This document shows positions 1,885-19,129 of a stretch of 32,000 bases of DNA, piece by piece. The stretch spans positions 16,825-48,824 of the forward strand of contig JAWOFX010000167.1 of NCBI GenBank assembly GCA_046497275.1, read 5' to 3'. The notes beneath the pieces are model-generated. The model made no database searches, was not told the origin of the DNA, and saw nothing but the letters and a program-made list of their open reading frames with translations. The DNA comes from Promethearchaeia archaeon (lineage in GTDB: Archaea > Asgardarchaeota > Lokiarchaeia > Sigyniarchaeales > SOKP01). The translations under genes were made by a program, and so were the position numbers. Within the stretch, counting starts at the first letter, position 1. Every line of letters begins with the position of its first letter.

Positions 1885-2280
1885 ATGAATGAAAAAAACT
1901 TATCAGATCCTTCAAATATTGATAGGTTGAGTCAAATAATCCAGAGTCTTAAAGAGAAGGCAAATTTATCTGGAATAATTCTATCCTATAGGGACGGTAG
2001 AACTATAGTAAAAGAGATTGAGGGAGTCCATCAGATTGATCAGTTTATACCTTTGATTGCTTCTGCATTACGTAGTGCTGAGGATTTGGGAATTACTGTT
2101 AATGGAAGTACTCTTCACAAAATAATTGCTCAATTAGAGAATTTTTCTATTATGATTTTAAAATGTAGTAGTAAAGATGTCTTTTTAACTTTAATTATCA
2201 ATGAAGCGTCTAATCTTAAACCCATTTTAGAAAATTATGAGGAACTTTCAAAAAAGATTGCAAAACATATAGAGATTTGA
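1885..2280 (+). CDS. Roadblock/LC7 (MglB-like) domain protein
   Basis: 131 aa with the roadblock pattern: helix, GIILSYRDGRTI strand pair, helix (ALIASALRSAEDLG), then three strands and a terminal helix. Confidence 0.8.
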   Translation: MNEKNLSDPSNIDRLSQIIQSLKEKANLSGIILSYRDGRTIVKEIEGVHQIDQFIPLIASALRSAEDLGITVNGSTLHKIIAQLENFSIMILKCSSKDVFLTLIINEASNLKPILENYEELSKKIAKHIEI

Positions 2281-10971: not shown

Positions 10972-12210
10972 TCAGTGGTCTAGTTGCTTTTTCTTATTGA
11001 AGAGTTGTTTTAATTCATCCAAAACTTGACCGCGAACATTTTGTTCACTTGTTTCTCTAATTTGATCCGATGTTCTTATCTCGATTGGAACTCCTGATTG
11101 GGCGATATGAAATGCTCCACTCTCAACAGCATTTAATCGAGCGTCAATTTCATTTAATTGTTCTGAAATGCTTTCTGAAAGTTTAATAACAGCATTCATC
11201 ACTTCCTCTAAAGTATTACCTAAACCTTCTACTTTTTTCAATGTGGGATCTGTTAGATTATTAGTACTGATAATATCCTTTAAATATTTAGAGAATTCCG
11301 GTTTGGAAAATTTGGAATAGATTGAACTTAGGTAAGTTTCATAATTAAAATAATATTCCTTGTTTTTGAAAAGATCTTCCATTTTTTCTTTTATGAGTTC
11401 GATATTCAATTTTATTTTTGGATCATCCTTAATATCTGGATCAAACTTGTGAATTAAGATTAAGATATATGGAATCTCTTCTAATATCACTAAAATATCA
11501 AGGATTTGCCTAAAATAATCAAAAGATTCATCAAACCTTTCTGGATCTTGAACATCGATGACATAGATAAGCAAATCTATTTGTAGAAAATATTTTTCAG
11601 GTTCCTTTAGGTATTTATCCCTATATGATTTTTGACCCCCGAAATCCCAAATAAATAAATCTAAATTTTGTTTCTCAAAAGTTTGTCGATTCACTCCTTT
11701 AGTTGGTTCTAAATTAGAGAGTTCTTGTATACCCTTTTCCATCCCAACTTTTGAAACGATAGCAGTTTTACCAGCATTATCTAAACCAACAACGATAACT
11801 TTTTGAGCATTTTTATCTAATATTTGTGTTTCTCCATTAATTTGTTTTATTAGATTACTAAGTGTTATAGCTTTTTTTATATTAATCTCTAAATCGGAAT
11901 ATTTTTTTTTATAGATTTCTAATTTTATTTCTACATCTTGAGAGAACTCAGAATCTTTCTTAGACTTGCTTTGTTCTTTAATAAATTTGTTTAATGGTGC
12001 ATCTTTATCTAGTTGAGCTAATTCTTCGATATTTGAAGTTTTTAAAATCTCACTGATTACTCGTGCTTGGTTCTTACCTAAAAATTTATAAGCTGAAATA
12101 GGGAGCTTAAGAAGATCTTCAAGATTATTAAATTCTTTCTCTAAATATTCCTCATCTAAGAATCTTCTAAAAACTTCTATTACATCGGAACTTTTAGTAT
12201 CTGAAGTAAT
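10972..12210 (-). CDS. Arf/Rag-like small GTPase with N-terminal HhH-like extension and C-terminal coiled coil (~412 aa; start probably non-canonical)
   Basis: I translated upstream of the listed ATG 11742. The frame stays open to an in-frame TGA at 12217-12219 and includes the G1 motif GLDNAGKT. Downstream are G2 PT, G3 WDFGGQ, G4 HKFD and G5 SSI. ATT at 12210 lies 6 nt after GAGGAGTGA. Confidence 0.85.
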   Translation of the reverse strand: MTSDTKSSDVIEVFRRFLDEEYLEKEFNNLEDLLKLPISAYKFLGKNQARVISEILKTSNIEELAQLDKDAPLNKFIKEQSKSKKDSEFSQDVEIKLEIYKKKYSDLEINIKKAITLSNLIKQINGETQILDKNAQKVIVVGLDNAGKTAIVSKVGMEKGIQELSNLEPTKGVNRQTFEKQNLDLFIWDFGGQKSYRDKYLKEPEKYFLQIDLLIYVIDVQDPERFDESFDYFRQILDILVILEEIPYILILIHKFDPDIKDDPKIKLNIELIKEKMEDLFKNKEYYFNYETYLSSIYSKFSKPEFSKYLKDIISTNNLTDPTLKKVEGLGNTLEEVMNAVIKLSESISEQLNEIDARLNAVESGAFHIAQSGVPIEIRTSDQIRETSEQNVRGQVLDELKQLFNKKKQLDH

Positions 12211-13498: not shown

Positions 13499-16400
13499 TT
13501 ATATAGGGATTAATTTTTCCTCCTCTTCAAAGAGTGGGAGATTCCGGAGCATTTGATTTATCATAGGCAAATATTTTTTTATTCTGTCTTTCCAGGAATC
13601 AAGAATGAAATCAAGTATCTCCAACTGAAAGAGTTCACTAACTATTTTTCTTATTTTTCCGAGGTTTTTTAAATATTCCTCTACATTAATTTCTATTTTA
13701 TTAAAATCTATACCTGCTTTTTTTGCGCTAATAGTATAAAGAAGTAGCATCAAAGAACTTATTTTATAATCTTTTACTTCTGAACGTTTTTTAGCTAACT
13801 CTAAATAATATTCTGAGGCTTTTTTATAATCATCATTGGATAAAGCTTTCAATATATCTTGATAATGCCTTTTCTTTAATGCTTTTCGTTTTTTAAATAT
13901 CTCTTGAAATTCCGATTTATTATCTTTTAGTTTTTGACTTAATATATCTATTTTTTGATCCATTTCTATTAATTTCTTAGATTTCTCTCCCCTTTCTTCT
14001 CTAGATAATATTTTTTCTTGAAACTCCCCCTTCTTTTCTTTCTTTAAATAAGATCTAATTAACTCTTGTTCAGGTTTAAACAAGATTAATTTTTCAGAAT
14101 ATATTTTTAGAATCATTGAAATAAGATCATCAAAATTAGCATTCCAAGCGTCTATTAGTTTTATAAATAATCTAACTTCTGGTAATTTTCCAATTTCTGG
14201 GACTTGCTTATAATACTGATCAAGATTATCTAAAGCGATCTTTTCTCTCTCATTAAATAAATTTATTAGAGAAGAAATGATTAAACAAATTCCAGCATGT
14301 TTGTTGAATCCTTTTTCGTTTAGTTCTGGAATTAATTTGAGATAAGATGAAGCAGCTTCTAAATAGTTCTGTTCTGATATATTCTTAAGTATTGATTCAT
14401 AATATCTATGCTTCATCAACTTTCGTTTAGCTATATCTTCTTTCTCATTTATTATTGCCTTAGATAAATTGCTAACCGTAGTTTTCAGTTCCTCTTTATC
14501 AATTGTAATTTTTTCTCTAACTTCTGCTTTAGATATCTTAACATAATCTATACCTAAAATATCATAAAGGATTTTTTTTTCCTCTTCGAATAAAGGTAAT
14601 TCTTCCATAAATGAGAAAGCTTGGTTTAATTTTTTCTCATCCTTGACTTTATAGAGGTCTATAATATACTCAATTAATAAAATTGGGAACGTATCCAAAA
14701 AAAGCTGATTTGATTTTGTTTTTTTCTTAGTGTATTTAATAAATTCATTCATGTTTTTTTGTTTCATTTTAATTAAACAAATTACAGCAAATGAGACTGC
14801 TGCAAGATAATATTTTCTCAATTCATTCAATTTATCTACTGTGTTTTCATAAATTTCTACAGCGTTCTGGTAATTTTCATTTTCTAAGAAATTCAACGCC
14901 TCTTTAAAATAGGCCCTTTTTAACCCTCTTCTCTGTCTAAATTCGATTTCTTTATCTAATCGTGCATCTTGAGATTTTTTTTCTATTATTGAAAGCCTTT
15001 CTTGTAATGATTTCTTTTTTAAAGTAGTTTCAATCTCTTTCGCTCTTGAGGCGATTTTTTCTTCCTCTGTTGCAGAGAGTTTGTTATATACTTGCTTTTT
15101 GTAAAACTTATCCTCAATTTTATCTAAATAACTCAATGCAGATGAGAGATCCTCCATTTCAATATATAGTTCCGATATAGCTTTATTTAGTTCGTCAAAA
15201 TCTGGCTCATAATCCTCTAAATAAGCATTTGCAATATTTTTTGCTTTTTTAATTAAATCAACAGCATAGATAATACTAGAACGATTTTTCCCTACTTCAA
15301 TAGCATTCAGAGCTTCGCTTTTAATTATATTAATAAATAATTTACTGAGTTCTTGTGATTTTTCATAAAGCATCTGGTCTCTATAAACAAGATTAGCTTT
15401 TTCTAAAAGATCCTCAACTTTCTCATATCCATAGAGGGTACTAATATCTTTGAAACTGTCAATTAGAGAAGAAAAAACAAATATTAAATAATCTTTTTGA
15501 ATTTCTTCTGTTTCAATTTTAAAATATAGATTAAATAATTCTTCTAATTGATTTGCTTCTAATAATATATTCATAGCTTCACAGAGAATTTGATCTGCTA
15601 ATCTTTTCTCCCCAATATTCGTTAAATATTCAGAATGTAATTCTAAATATTTTGCTGCTTTTATATGATTATTCTTCTTGGAGAATTGTTCAGCTTTTTC
15701 TAATTTAGTGTTGTTAATGTTTTCGATAATCATAATTTCTACTTGCCTAAATGATCTGATTGTCTCAACTCCTGTTCTTAAATCCATTTGAAGAGCTTTT
15801 CGCCTTAAAATCTTAATTCTATCTTCTATTTCTGAACTATATTCAGTTAATTTCTTTTTTAATTCTAAAGAATTTAGTTCATTTAAAAGATAAGTGGCCA
15901 TTCCGAAATCATGTTTATGTAAAAATTGTCTAATAATCTCCTCTAAACTCTCATCCAGATCAACTTTTTCAACATTAAATGCCTCCCATAAATTCTCAAT
16001 TTCATCATAAGTTCTTTTTGCGTCGTATGTCTCCTCATGTTGAATATTTTTTTGAAGAATTTTTATTAAAATATCTGCAAGTTTGTGGGTGAACCGTTCC
16101 ATTGCTTCAAATAAACCTTCTCTTTGATATGTATGGATGCTTATATACAATTGCTCCCTGGCGGCTTCTAAGTTGCCGATTGAAACTAAATAATCTGCTG
16201 CTGATAATACCTTTTCTATTAAATCCTCTAAAGTTTGTTTAATTTGTTCGTGAGGGAGCCTCTCTAAAATAGTAAATGCATTCTCTACTCTACATGCAGA
16301 GATCCAAGAATTAATGGCTAATCTAAATGATTTTATTATCAAGTCTTTATCTTTTAGTTCTATTAATGACCATTGAGCAGCATTCTCATATTGTCGTGCG

Positions 16401-17200
16401 GAAAATTCATAATCCCTTTTATTAAATAACTTATTACCTTCACGAATCATCGTTTCAGCATAAAGTCTTTTATATTCATTAGCTTTTTTCTCATTTACTT
16501 TGTCCAAAATTTTTGCTGCTTCTAAAAAAAGATTTAATTGTGAATATAAATATGCTGCTTGCTCGCTGATGATATAGTATTCTTCTTTATTAAAAACATT
16601 ACTAATAAATGCCGCCTTTTTAATTGCTTTTGCAGCTTCAAAAAAATTTTTTTGATTATAATAAAAATTCGCTTGCATAATTAAAATGGGAAACCGAAGC
16701 CATGCATTCTCTAAATTAAGTGGTTTATCACCTGAAATCATAGCAGAAGCTAAACAATGAAGAGCTTGACGAAAATCTTTGGGATGGAGATTAACAAATG
16801 CCTCAAAATCAGGGTATTTGATCCAAGATTCTTCTAATAATTCTATAGTAGATTTAGATAAGATTCCGTCTTCATTATTATACATCAAGACTGTTGGAAT
16901 ATCTCTCTTGATTTTCTTGAAAATTTCCAATATTATATTAAATAGCTCACGTTGTTCTTCATCTAAGGGATTCATAAAATAGAGAATTCCATCTACGCTT
17001 GGGATAATCTCATCAAAATTTGCTGTTAAACTTGTAATAACATCAATTTCTAACTCGCAAACATTTTCTAATATATGTATTTCTCTATTCCATTTCACAT
17101 ATGTTTCCTTATCTTTTCCGATTTCATTCAAAGCAGTAGAAACATAAGGAAGTGAAAGATCCGAATTACCTAATATTAAAATTCTGAATATATAACGCAT
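13499..17200 (-). CDS. Large alpha-solenoid (TPR/SNAP-like) protein with N-terminal degenerate small-GTPase-like domain and three C-terminal repeats
   Basis: The N-terminal strands YIFRILILG, DGILYF and IPTVLMYN mimic the Rab/Ras fold but lack GKS/T. The rest is helical, with A-x-x-x-Y/F TPR-like patterns. Confidence 0.7.
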   Translation of the reverse strand: MRYIFRILILGNSDLSLPYVSTALNEIGKDKETYVKWNREIHILENVCELEIDVITSLTANFDEIIPSVDGILYFMNPLDEEQRELFNIILEIFKKIKRDIPTVLMYNNEDGILSKSTIELLEESWIKYPDFEAFVNLHPKDFRQALHCLASAMISGDKPLNLENAWLRFPILIMQANFYYNQKNFFEAAKAIKKAAFISNVFNKEEYYIISEQAAYLYSQLNLFLEAAKILDKVNEKKANEYKRLYAETMIREGNKLFNKRDYEFSARQYENAAQWSLIELKDKDLIIKSFRLAINSWISACRVENAFTILERLPHEQIKQTLEDLIEKVLSAADYLVSIGNLEAAREQLYISIHTYQREGLFEAMERFTHKLADILIKILQKNIQHEETYDAKRTYDEIENLWEAFNVEKVDLDESLEEIIRQFLHKHDFGMATYLLNELNSLELKKKLTEYSSEIEDRIKILRRKALQMDLRTGVETIRSFRQVEIMIIENINNTKLEKAEQFSKKNNHIKAAKYLELHSEYLTNIGEKRLADQILCEAMNILLEANQLEELFNLYFKIETEEIQKDYLIFVFSSLIDSFKDISTLYGYEKVEDLLEKANLVYRDQMLYEKSQELSKLFINIIKSEALNAIEVGKNRSSIIYAVDLIKKAKNIANAYLEDYEPDFDELNKAISELYIEMEDLSSALSYLDKIEDKFYKKQVYNKLSATEEEKIASRAKEIETTLKKKSLQERLSIIEKKSQDARLDKEIEFRQRRGLKRAYFKEALNFLENENYQNAVEIYENTVDKLNELRKYYLAAVSFAVICLIKMKQKNMNEFIKYTKKKTKSNQLFLDTFPILLIEYIIDLYKVKDEKKLNQAFSFMEELPLFEEEKKILYDILGIDYVKISKAEVREKITIDKEELKTTVSNLSKAIINEKEDIAKRKLMKHRYYESILKNISEQNYLEAASSYLKLIPELNEKGFNKHAGICLIISSLINLFNEREKIALDNLDQYYKQVPEIGKLPEVRLFIKLIDAWNANFDDLISMILKIYSEKLILFKPEQELIRSYLKKEKKGEFQEKILSREERGEKSKKLIEMDQKIDILSQKLKDNKSEFQEIFKKRKALKKRHYQDILKALSNDDYKKASEYYLELAKKRSEVKDYKISSLMLLLYTISAKKAGIDFNKIEINVEEYLKNLGKIRKIVSELFQLEILDFILDSWKDRIKKYLPMINQMLRNLPLFEEEEKLIPI

Positions 17201-17222
17201 TTTAATTAAGATGAATAGTATT

Positions 17223-17328
17223 ATTAACTTTATAAAAATGTTTTTCCTATGTGATTTCTTTTCTAATATAAGATAATTAATTTTATAAAAATATTTTTCC
17301 TATATGTTTTCTTTTCATATATAAAATA
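17223..17328 (-). repeat. Tandem duplication of a 53-bp unit containing a TATA/BRE-like element
   Basis: Copy 1 is 17223-17275 and copy 2 is 17276-17328, identical at 46 of 53 positions by manual alignment. Each copy contains TTTATAAA next to TTTTTCC. Confidence 0.85.
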
Positions 17329-17354
17329 TATATTATTTACGAGGAACATCTTTT

Positions 17355-18011
17355 ATGGATTACAATGTCGAAAGGAACTATAAAATTCTAAAAGAAAAAA
17401 TGGAGGATTCACTGGAAAGTACTCTTGAATTTGGCAGAGAGTTAATAGAAACTGAACTAGATGCGGGAATTTTCGATTCTATCGTTAAGCCTATCGTTAA
17501 GAAGTTTTATGATATGTGGTGTGATAAAGATGCTCGTTCAGGTACAAAAAAACAGATAAAAGTGACTTTGGATGTCGCTAAACAACTGGTTCAAAATGGA
17601 TCACAAGAAAAATTTGATCAATTAATTAATGATAATTTCAAAGAATATCTTAGTGGAGATCAAACATATCTTCAATGTAGTAAAACCCATAAAAATTTTG
17701 GTAAATTAAAAGAAGTCACAAAAAAAGGTTTTATATCTCAAGTTAAAGAAGCGGTTAGATTTCTTAATGTTGAAGAGAATGTAATCAATTACGATGAATT
17801 AACAAGAGCTGCATTTAAAACAAAAAAAGAGGCATATAATGCTCTTTCTATACAATTAGATCATAATGATGAGGGAATTAAAATAGTAGAGAAAGATCCA
17901 TCGATTCTCAGCATTCCCACAGGAAAAAAAACAATCCTAAGAATATTACGAAAGGGTTTTGAGCAAACTAAGCGAGATCTAATTAACCGATTGGATGATA
18001 TATTTAATTAA
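17355..18011 (+). CDS. Hypothetical protein (predicted all-alpha, soluble)
   Basis: 218-aa ORF with typical composition and GAGGAA upstream of the ATG. I recognise no motif. Confidence 0.75.
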   Translation: MDYNVERNYKILKEKMEDSLESTLEFGRELIETELDAGIFDSIVKPIVKKFYDMWCDKDARSGTKKQIKVTLDVAKQLVQNGSQEKFDQLINDNFKEYLSGDQTYLQCSKTHKNFGKLKEVTKKGFISQVKEAVRFLNVEENVINYDELTRAAFKTKKEAYNALSIQLDHNDEGIKIVEKDPSILSIPTGKKTILRILRKGFEQTKRDLINRLDDIFN

Positions 18012-18055: not shown

Positions 18056-19129
18056 ATGAATGATAATAAAGATAAGAATTATCTATCTCCAAAATATAGC
18101 CTCATAAGAAGATTTTTTTTAAATCTTTTCATAATTACATTTTTAATAATGATATATTTTTACGTTTCTGATTATTTTGGATCGATATCGACCATTTTTT
18201 TAAAAAATTCTAAATTCTTTGTATCTATTAGTTTTATTTTATTGATTTTTGTGTTTTTCTCGATTTTAGCCGGACCATTGCCAGCAACTATTGCAGGGTT
18301 TTTTGGTGAATTAATTTATCAATTTTCATTTTATGAAAATATAAGGTTAGAATGGTGCATAATCGTTTCATTAATAGGATTAACCGTTAGTATCTATAAA
18401 TATAAACCTTTAAAGTACAAATCTTGGAGAAAACTTTTCTATACATTTATTTCTCTAACAATTTCCGCATTTATTATATCATTTTTAATAATAATTTTTC
18501 AGGCTATCTTAAATCCAATAATAAATTTGAATTCACTTTTAGTGGATTATGGGTGTAAATATTTGGTTCATGCACTCCTTTCTGTTGTACTTATTATACC
18601 TTTATTAGTATTGATTTATGATAGAGCTCTAGCTAATAAAGAGCAACATATTTATAATCTATTCTTAACTCACCATCCCATTTATCAAAGTGATCATACA
18701 TTTTATTTAAAGTTTGGAAGAACATATATATATTTCTGTTCTCGTTGTTCAGGTGTGATAATTGGTGGATTAATTATAATTTTTATAAATGATGTATTAA
18801 ACAGAGCTATTGGTTTTACTATTGAACCGGAAATTGCAGTAATATTATGTATTTTTTTACCTATTCCTGGATTAATAGATTGGGGCACTCAGAGATTATT
18901 ATTGCGTAAAAGTACTACAGAATCTAGACTCTTAACTGGATTTATAATAGGAATTGCTCTATATTACTTAAGTTTCACAGATAAGTATATTATTTATATG
19001 TTTTTTCTAATAATTTTTTATTTTTCAGTAGTTGGGATTGCATTATACATAGGACAAAAAAGAGAATTAAAAAAGGCAGAAGAAGAGGAATATAAATCAC
19101 CTAAACTTGAAGAGGATCAGTTTGAATAA
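18056..19129 (+). CDS. Membrane protein: ECF S-component-like N-terminal half fused to a DUF2085-like C-terminal half
   Basis: LAGPLPATIAGFFGELIYQ resembles the S-component GP..G...G signature. FCSRCSGVIIG, IDWGTQ and RLLTGFIIG resemble DUF2085 (CARC). Confidence 0.65.
   Translation: MNDNKDKNYLSPKYSLIRRFFLNLFIITFLIMIYFYVSDYFGSISTIFLKNSKFFVSISFILLIFVFFSILAGPLPATIAGFFGELIYQFSFYENIRLEWCIIVSLIGLTVSIYKYKPLKYKSWRKLFYTFISLTISAFIISFLIIIFQAILNPIINLNSLLVDYGCKYLVHALLSVVLIIPLLVLIYDRALANKEQHIYNLFLTHHPIYQSDHTFYLKFGRTYIYFCSRCSGVIIGGLIIIFINDVLNRAIGFTIEPEIAVILCIFLPIPGLIDWGTQRLLLRKSTTESRLLTGFIIGIALYYLSFTDKYIIYMFFLIIFYFSVVGIALYIGQKRELKKAEEEEYKSPKLEEDQFE

Follow-up and report, generated by a model that had tools for sequence, protein, structure and literature searches.

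A predicted Ras-type G-domain without a P-loop on a modular helical protein, a probable scaffold, from one order of Lokiarchaeia

The pseudo-GTPases of class i, among them CENP-M, the pG1 and pG2 domains of p190RhoGAP and the N-terminal domain of AAGAB, retain the fold of a G-domain with its nucleotide-binding motifs lost and serve in eukaryotes as fixed protein-interaction or scaffold elements, constituting a functional class rather than a homologous family. CENP-M and AAGAB work with alpha-solenoid partners, and, to our knowledge, next to nothing has been established about the cellular roles of the large small-GTPase families found in Asgard archaea. CENP-M stabilises kinetochore assembly, and pG1 and pG2 do not bind nucleotide (PMC10211241). 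In the literature searched, no pseudo-GTPase is described outside eukaryotes. Here we analyse a gene within a 32,000-nucleotide stretch of DNA from a Promethearchaeia archaeon (contig JAWOFX010000167.1, positions 16,825 to 48,824; the whole stretch is referred to as the window), the 1233-residue product of which appears to join a head of this kind to a long helical scaffold.

The favoured reading, to which we assign a probability of roughly 0.6, is that this protein is a cytosolic, nucleotide-independent assembly scaffold or adaptor, in which a degenerate Ras-family G-domain head is carried on modular helical repeats. The gene is a single open reading frame (ORF) of 1233 codons on the minus strand (window 13499-17200, stop included), as in a preliminary description drawn from the letters of the window, and its product is divided as follows:

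13499-17200, minus strand: whole coding sequence, 1233 residues (ORF; more than 200 full-length homologs)
16727-17200, minus strand: predicted Ras/Rab-fold pseudo-GTPase head without G1, G3 and G4, residues 1-158 (predicted model, structure searches, motif counts)
16688-16732, minus strand: junction of the head with the first helix of the tetratricopeptide repeat (TPR) region, residues 157-171, GDKPLNLENAWLRFP (conservation in 44 sequences)
15881-16705, minus strand: first TPR-like module, well conserved, residues 166-440 (model hairpins, TPR_2, conservation)
15677-15868, minus strand: first long continuous charged helix, 64 residues, residues 445-508 (DSSP H286-349 of the model that starts at residue 160)
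15125-15667, minus strand: second helical (TPR-like) module, residues 512-692 (model; sub-threshold TPR_19)
14549-15109, minus strand: C-terminal repeat R1, residues 698-884 (self-comparison, model, module alignment)
14045-14503, minus strand: repeat R2, residues 900-1052 (gap in short forms; self-comparison)
13502-14005, minus strand: repeat R3 and C-terminus, residues 1066-1233 (self-comparison, model, module alignment)

The head was modelled from an alignment of residues 1-185 with 43 relatives (44 sequences). The resulting AlphaFold2 model has a mean predicted local distance difference test score (pLDDT) of 89.8 and a predicted template modelling score (pTM) of 0.85, and its elements as assigned by DSSP, b1 (2-10), a1 (13-24), b2 (34-43), b3 (46-55), a2 (62-68), b4 (71-76), a3 (81-96), b5 (103-107), a4 (118-128), b6 (132-136) and a5 (140-156), are predicted to follow the order of a six-stranded small-GTPase G-domain. 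The top matches of a Foldseek search against the PDB are exclusively Ras/Rab proteins, KRAS included (E 2.4e-8, template modelling (TM) score 0.62-0.69), and a VIA search of 48,161 chains, independent of Foldseek, listed 50 matches, every one of them a GTPase (Z 14.7-11.3), the best being Sec4p (Z 14.7, 154 residues, root-mean-square deviation (rmsd) 2.9 Å, for residues 1-158 of the model). The closest shapes in the ESM Atlas are Asgard Ras-type GTP-binding proteins (TM 0.68, 155 residues, rmsd 3.0), and the nearest language-model neighbours are clusters of Arf, Ras and RabL5/IFT22 (0.89-0.93). Residues 1-158 are confidently predicted to adopt a Ras/Rab-type G-domain fold. The preliminary description, which had read a small-GTPase strand order into the first ~150 residues, anticipated this alpha/beta fold correctly, and the strings that it quoted are located at residues 1-11 (MRYIFRILILG), 11-18 (GNSDLSLP), 68-75 (SVDGILYF) and 101-108 (IPTVLMYN).

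Profile searches at the level of sequence leave the family on its own. The Pfam GTPase families Ras, Arf, Roc and Gtr1 have no match in the 1233-residue protein, even at E <= 1, and Pfam searches of the whole protein and of its parts returned TPR below threshold, a spurious Jagunal match and nothing else. A search of the genome with PF00071 gives 48 Ras-family matches, the 1233-residue gene not being among them, and PDB sequence searches with the head and solenoid profiles gave chance-level matches only (E >= 0.035). The 49 proteins retrieved by the head profile from 1.84 billion representative proteins are all members, or fragments of members, of its own family.

The nucleotide-binding motifs are absent from this predicted fold. 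Neither GxxxxGK[ST] nor [NT]KxD occurs in the head of any of the 152 family members with a complete head, and DxxG is present in three, incidentally and at non-homologous positions; the preliminary description had noted the absence of the same three motifs from the window's protein. In a motif count over the family, [AG]xxxxGK[ST] is likewise absent from the first 200 residues. When the head is aligned by hhalign with Ras-type GTPases of the same genome, a gap of five residues falls exactly over VGKTS of the P-loop, in agreement with a b1-a1 loop of only two residues in the model, and it is at the former P-loop that the head varies most in the 44-sequence alignment. At the place of G4, the window's protein reads N108-N109-E110-D111, which is not conserved, the family consensus being FYDxxG after b5. 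Because the P-loop is deleted and G3 and G4 are replaced in every known member, the head is most likely unable to bind GTP or to switch; judged by this motif loss and deletion, it would be nucleotide-free. With its predicted G-domain fold and lost motifs, it would fall among the class-i pseudo-GTPases.

Despite these losses, the head is well preserved. Mean column identity is 66% in the head versus 57% in the rest of the protein, and C48, E51, D70, G71, P78, P102, W126, E133, N137 and F143 are invariant. Since this conservation accompanies a variable former P-loop, the head is read as a probable old pseudo-GTPase under selection rather than one in decay. The most conserved stretch of the protein is the junction GDxPLNxENAW(M/L)RFP (residues 157-171; conservation peak 0.83, in the bin 151-180), in which G157, P160, L161, E164, W167, R169 and P171 are invariant in the 44 sequences and which is kept as PVNLEGAWLR in a distant homolog from Sigynarchaeota. 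A small-GTPase fold without a P-loop, joined to a long helical-repeat scaffold, as the preliminary description had proposed, is thus borne out by the predicted models and by the conserved junction.

The helical part, residues 160-1233, was modelled from an alignment with 41 relatives and consists, by DSSP, of helices only, with no beta-rich domain. As its pTM is 0.39 despite a pLDDT of 84.4, the geometry between modules is probably flexible. Where the preliminary description had seen about 1000 residues of TPR/SNAP-like helices, the all-helical character is upheld and TPR_2 is found in 22 of 42 relatives (best E 3.6e-9; TPR_1 in 9), but the region is not a uniform solenoid and has no Pfam SNAP match; it combines TPR-like modules with three long helices and three tandem repeats of ~170 residues. 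The first TPR-like module forms helix hairpins in the model, with a conservation of 0.65-0.76; in the window's protein TPR_2 remains sub-threshold at 173-197, the TPR profiles scoring 15.6-19.8 bits against cut-offs of 25-27. The second helical module includes a sub-threshold TPR_19 match at 660-701, and residues 493-583 are weakly similar to residues 921-1019. Canonical TPR is only part of the helical region. Continuous helices rich in Lys/Arg and Glu/Asp are found at 445-508, 698-759 and 1067-1107, with helical bundles in the intervening stretches, and low-confidence linkers at 888-899 and 1054-1065.

Self-comparison places the tandem repeats at roughly 705-880, 885-1050 and 1060-1233, with E values down to 3.5e-11 (R1 versus R3; 6e-8 for R2 versus R3), and in the module alignment all three share a run of basic residues, an invariant Tyr and a central hydrophobic helix, with LPLFEEE at the close. 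R1 (698-884) opens with the charged helix 698-759, continues as a bundle around the hydrophobic central helix and is closed by L868-P-L-F-E-E-E874, with Y784 and E874 invariant in the module alignment; R3 ends in L1221-P-L-F-E-E-E-E, directly followed by the C-terminus. The LPLFEEE that closes R1 and R3 is nearly invariant. R2 is the least conserved repeat, its region being missing (gap 899-1063) from nine of nine short forms of ~1070-1100 residues and doubled in a 1410-residue form (P0040), which has four repeats. Copy number among relatives is accordingly 2, 3 or 4 and varies even within one genus (g12). The ~170-residue module occurs in no other protein of the genome. The hydropathy of its central helix peaks at 1.35 in the window's protein, below the transmembrane threshold, and reaches a borderline transmembrane Kyte-Doolittle value of 1.65-2.0 in the orthologs of cultured strains (P0173 of MK-D1, residues 797-815 and 968-986; P0170 of L. 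ossiferum, residues 797-815), compared with 2.6-2.8 for the helices of a neighbouring DUF2085 protein; we treat it here, provisionally, as a buried core helix.

The strongest matches that Foldseek gives for residues 160-1233 are Ski3/TTC37, IFT139/TTC21B, Ctr9 and Naa15 (E 2.7e-7 to 6e-6). A shape search of the ESM Atlas with the 1074-residue helical model gave TM <= 0.19, which is uninformative at such a length.

The window is archaeal and Lokiarchaeial, as indicated by its G+C content (~28%), by its gene content (a TFIIB gene, a Gtr1/RagA-Arf-like GTPase and other typical neighbours) and by the sources of homologs, the named homologs of the 1233-residue protein all coming from metagenome-assembled genomes of Lokiarchaeota/Promethearchaeota. 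Among the homologs retrieved and the literature searched (on archaeal or Asgard pseudo-GTPases, on Lokiarchaeota proteins that combine GTPase and TPR, and under the locus tags and accessions), the family has no characterised member to which the protein could be matched over its full length, and no publication describing it was found. Its own genome contains one copy of the gene. In 400 genomes of the phylum, the head profile detects it in 120/134, 1/1 and 13/14 genomes of families f1, f2 and f3 of one Lokiarchaeial order and in essentially none elsewhere; the solenoid profile finds it, in single copy, in 125/134, 1/1 and 14/14 genomes of these families and in 2/4 of a fourth, f4, with no match in other families and classes of the phylum at E <= 1e-8. 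The phyletic survey that the preliminary description had suggested confines the family to this order, plus the one distant full-length homolog from Sigynarchaeota (hhalign 98.8%, 846 columns). Homolog and profile searches never found the head as a free protein of ~180 residues; it is always N-terminal to a protein of 1070-1410 residues. No eukaryotic homolog of the family was detected, and the proteins of f1 and f3 are only 25-30% identical.

By exact look-up, the f3 orthologs include DSAG12_01390 of Promethearchaeum syntrophicum MK-D1 (QEE15564.1) and NEF87_003838 of Ca. Lokiarchaeum ossiferum (UYP47553.1), both annotated as hypothetical. In the MK-D1 culture, DSAG12_01390 is expressed at 202 reads per kilobase per million mapped reads (RPKM), near the values of its neighbours, and carries no COG, arCOG or KEGG assignment and no eukaryotic signature protein (ESP) flag (PMC7015854, Suppl. 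Table 3). Four salt-lake metatranscriptome libraries, drawn from two studies, contain contigs that match parts of the window's gene at 100% identity, which lends weak support to its transcription, DNA carry-over being possible; stretches of the gene without RNA contigs, such as 14184-14797, mean nothing because the runs consist of low-depth contigs. Single-copy over four families of one order and expressed in MK-D1, this is a real gene under selection.

Within f1, about 30 kb around the scaffold gene are syntenic, and adjacency within this family consequently says little. When 15 loci are compared across f1 and f3, just two neighbouring genes keep their proximity, both of them on the opposite strand to the scaffold gene in the window:

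17355-18011, plus strand: P0168, a divergent neighbour encoding a 218-residue soluble protein of no known family (synteny over 15 loci; family alignment)
18056-19129, plus strand: DUF2085 polytopic membrane protein (Pfam PF09858, E 4.8e-14; synteny; hydropathy 2.6-2.8)

A gene for an HVO_0163-type helix-turn-helix protein likewise remains in the vicinity. The DUF2085 gene always directly follows P0168, and translational coupling of the two is suggested by their overlap in f3. P0168 is found throughout the class (all seven families), with a tandem duplicate in the large genera g12 and g13, and its invariant residues are DQT, C108 and H112; it has no Pfam family and no match among ESM Atlas features, and its structural neighbours reach TM <= 0.37. 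A functional link between the scaffold and the P0168/DUF2085 pair is a lead, not a finding; a complex prediction with residues 1-445 and P0168 scored 0.00, which speaks neither for nor against binding. In the metatranscriptome of run X7, one contig (17323-18274) runs from P0168 into DUF2085 and starts 32 nt upstream of the P0168 ATG, and hardly any coverage falls on the intergenic region 17201-17354 in any of the four RNA libraries. A homolog of P0168 also lies ~1.1 kb from an ORF of at least 2716 residues in an f7 genome (L064:11754-19904), with a 234-residue minus-strand ORF between them, the long ORF matching neither the head nor the solenoid profiles. In an f4 genome without a detectable scaffold gene (L060:9962-12231), a further homolog adjoins, on the same strand and at 189 bp, an Arf/Rag-like GTPase paralog of 469 residues.

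Two other neighbours were considered and set aside. The tail-to-tail adjacency of the TFIIB gene holds within f1 only and is not used. No link is claimed with the adjacent Arf/Rag-like GTPase, the pattern of which fails in f3. Within the window's genus, two genomes that have the scaffold gene (G274 and G276) hold a full-length ortholog of this GTPase (76% and 68% identity), and three that lack it (G277, G278 and G275) contain only paralogs of <= 50% identity. In f3, however, the nearest such GTPase of MK-D1, which keeps the scaffold gene, is more than 1 Mb away, and no homolog at E <= 1e-30 was found in L. ossiferum or G135, though both keep the scaffold gene. The GTPase ORF itself (10972-12210, minus strand) encodes, from its first ATG, 256 residues without a P-loop, compared with 408-437 residues in orthologs; GLDNAGKT lies in frame upstream of that ATG, and as no ATG, GTG or TTG precedes it back to the preceding stop, the gene probably starts at a non-canonical codon. 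In G170 (f1), three tandem paralogs of 413-422 residues stand beside the TFIIB and scaffold genes (L023:2909-7021). Elsewhere in the window, an ORF of 131 residues (1885-2280, plus strand) has a weak Pfam match to MAPKK1_Int (MP1/LAMTOR3, roadblock-type; E 6e-4, below the cut-off) and a homolog in the syntenic region of G273 (L071:4069-4482).

In the assembly-scaffold reading, the head would be a degenerate Ras-family G-domain, most like the expanded Asgard Ras/Rab-type GTPases, that acts as a fixed protein-binding surface rather than a switch and is held against the first TPR module by the invariant linker. The conserved head and this module may together bind one specific partner, and the variable number of C-terminal modules, each laid out as charged helix, helical bundle and LPLFEEE cap, might supply multivalent or length-setting binding sites. 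Both the scaffold role and any membrane link are what we infer.

Several observations weigh against this reading. The hhalign comparison of the head with 20 true Ras-type GTPases encoded by the same genome is non-significant (probability 7.9%), although the alignment stays in register strand by strand, and the head profile finds no GTPase among the 1.84 billion representative proteins; with homology non-significant at the sequence level, the descent of the head from a GTPase rests on its predicted fold. Degenerate motifs do not always prevent a pseudo-GTPase from binding nucleotide. The Foldseek matches of the solenoid are generic, with identities of 11-13% and a global TM of ~0.1, on account of which they share the repeat type only. 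The P0168/DUF2085 pair persists without the scaffold gene and ranges more widely than it does, which weakens the proposed link. Finally, the scaffold gene is missing from four genomes of the same genus by three different queries, two of these genomes being 92% and 95% complete and a third, G273 (61% complete), also showing it missing at the syntenic locus. G277 (10 contigs) retains an intact syntenic locus, in which a TFIIB gene lies 121 bp from the P0168 homolog with nothing between; since the gene is cleanly absent from this intact locus, it appears dispensable in at least the G277 lineage. Given the congeners without the gene, whatever its product scaffolds is not indispensable.

Among the alternatives, a length-setting tether or ruler is improbable but fares best. 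The charged helices would here be stiff spacers and the number of modules (2, 3 or 4) would set a distance, the protein forming a structural link that joins, say, a membrane complex to a structure in the cytosol, instead of serving many partners as a hub. With 17-22% acidic and 22-32% basic residues (17% D+E and 22% K+R in helix 445-508), the three continuous helices, each 41-64 residues long, suit such a role, as do the disordered linkers between modules and the low pTM, the discrete differences in copy number between lineages and the persistent proximity of the DUF2085 membrane-protein gene. However, the centre of helix 698-759 is modelled at pLDDT <50, making its continuity uncertain, and the variation of module number within genus g12 has no known correlate.

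A bolder proposal, which we consider rather unlikely, is that the dead head permanently mimics one state of a small GTPase and thereby docks GTPase-recognising partners, of the roadblock or longin type, onto a scaffold that works with the P0168/DUF2085 pair. Roadblock- and longin-type regulators and effectors are abundant in Asgard archaea. If this were true, the closest cultured relatives of eukaryotes would possess a lineage-specific, switch-less adaptor for organising membranes, and archaea would have their first described pseudo-GTPase.

Distinctly unlikely is an assembly chaperone or co-chaperone that holds client subunits transiently, with LPLFEEE serving as self-docking or autoinhibitory peptides for the protein's own TPR grooves. 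AAGAB is a pseudo-GTPase domain that chaperones adaptin solenoids, and TPR co-chaperones clamp acidic C-terminal peptides; the combination of a pseudo-GTPase head with TPR modules, the near-invariance of the ends of R1 and R3 and the dispensability of the gene in some species, as is often the case for accessory chaperones, would all be in keeping with this. LPLF is, however, modelled as an ordered turn between two helices (pLDDT ~86), as would be expected of a structural cap more than of a free peptide, and no Hsp70/Hsp90-type partner is linked to the gene in the neighbourhoods compared.

It is very unlikely that the head binds nucleotide or another phosphorylated ligand in a non-canonical manner, as a sensor or slow switch. 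New conserved motifs occupy the loops where G4 and G5 would lie (G112-x-x-P115 and V-N137-L-x-P140), the window's protein has NNED at the G4 place, and the conservation of C48, E51 and D70 is otherwise unexplained; but the P-loop is deleted rather than merely mutated, nowhere is the head more variable than in the remnant of this loop, and NNED is not conserved in the family. That the head has no GTPase ancestry at all but is a convergent three-layer alpha/beta domain, flavodoxin- or receiver-like, we regard as extremely improbable: it would account for the lack of significant sequence similarity to any GTPase family, but against it stand eleven elements in G-domain order, b2-b3 hairpin included, the fact that every match listed by VIA (50) or by Foldseek, covering residues 1-158, is a GTPase, the in-register alignment by hhalign, element by element, and the 48 Ras-family matches in the genome as potential sources.

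If the assembly-scaffold reading is correct, a Lokiarchaeial order would have turned one G-domain into a switch-less module fused to a large, modular helical scaffold. New here are the P-loop deletion, the series of two, three and four modules and the order-level range of the family, as well as the recognition of orthologs in cultured strains, of which that of MK-D1 is expressed, the conserved proximity of P0168 and DUF2085 and the natural losses. As orthologs exist in both cultured Lokiarchaea, partners and location are directly testable, and the congeners that naturally lack the gene offer a ready comparison within one genus. Being restricted to an order and having no detected eukaryotic homolog, the family bears on Asgard cell biology and not directly on eukaryogenesis.

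Compared with known systems, the protein is set apart from the STAND NTPases, in which an NTPase module of ~250-300 residues (NB-ARC or NACHT) with Walker A and B motifs precedes TPR repeats; this candidate was rejected, the head having 158 residues, no Walker A motif in the first 200 and structural matches to Ras-type rather than STAND folds. The preliminary description had also pointed to the large TRAPP subunits (TRAPPC8-11) and to alpha-SNAP, both of which share helical-repeat regions with the window's protein, and neither likeness gained specific support. TRAPP large subunits have beta-rich C-terminal domains after the solenoid, of which the helices-only model of residues 160-1233 has none, and neither a TRAPP large subunit nor a SNAP chain is among the 50 best Foldseek PDB matches listed for these residues, a family outside that list not being thereby excluded. 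The alpha-SNAP family PF14938 has no match in the window's protein (E <= 1) or in 42 relatives (E <= 0.05), leaving as a lead only the language-model neighbours of the last module, which are Asgard TPR proteins with Pfam SNAP matches (score 0.85).

The long eukaryotic TPR scaffolds Ski3/TTC37, IFT139/TTC21B, Ctr9 and Naa15 are closer in general build, being extended TPR-type superhelices that organise multi-subunit complexes, but none of them has a G-domain head, long charged helices or ~170-residue modules capped by LPLFEEE. With the Asgard Ras/Rab-type GTPases (PF00071/PF08477/PF00025), the head shares element order, domain size and beta-strand patterns in register, and differs from them in lacking G1, G3 and G4 and in falling below every Pfam GTPase threshold. 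Compared with the class-i pseudo-GTPases, to which no sequence relationship was detected and with which the comparison is one of analogy, the family differs in its archaeal host, in the five-residue deletion of the P-loop and in having head and solenoid fused in cis by way of an invariant linker; what it would share with the eukaryotic assembly factors CENP-M and AAGAB is a design logic.

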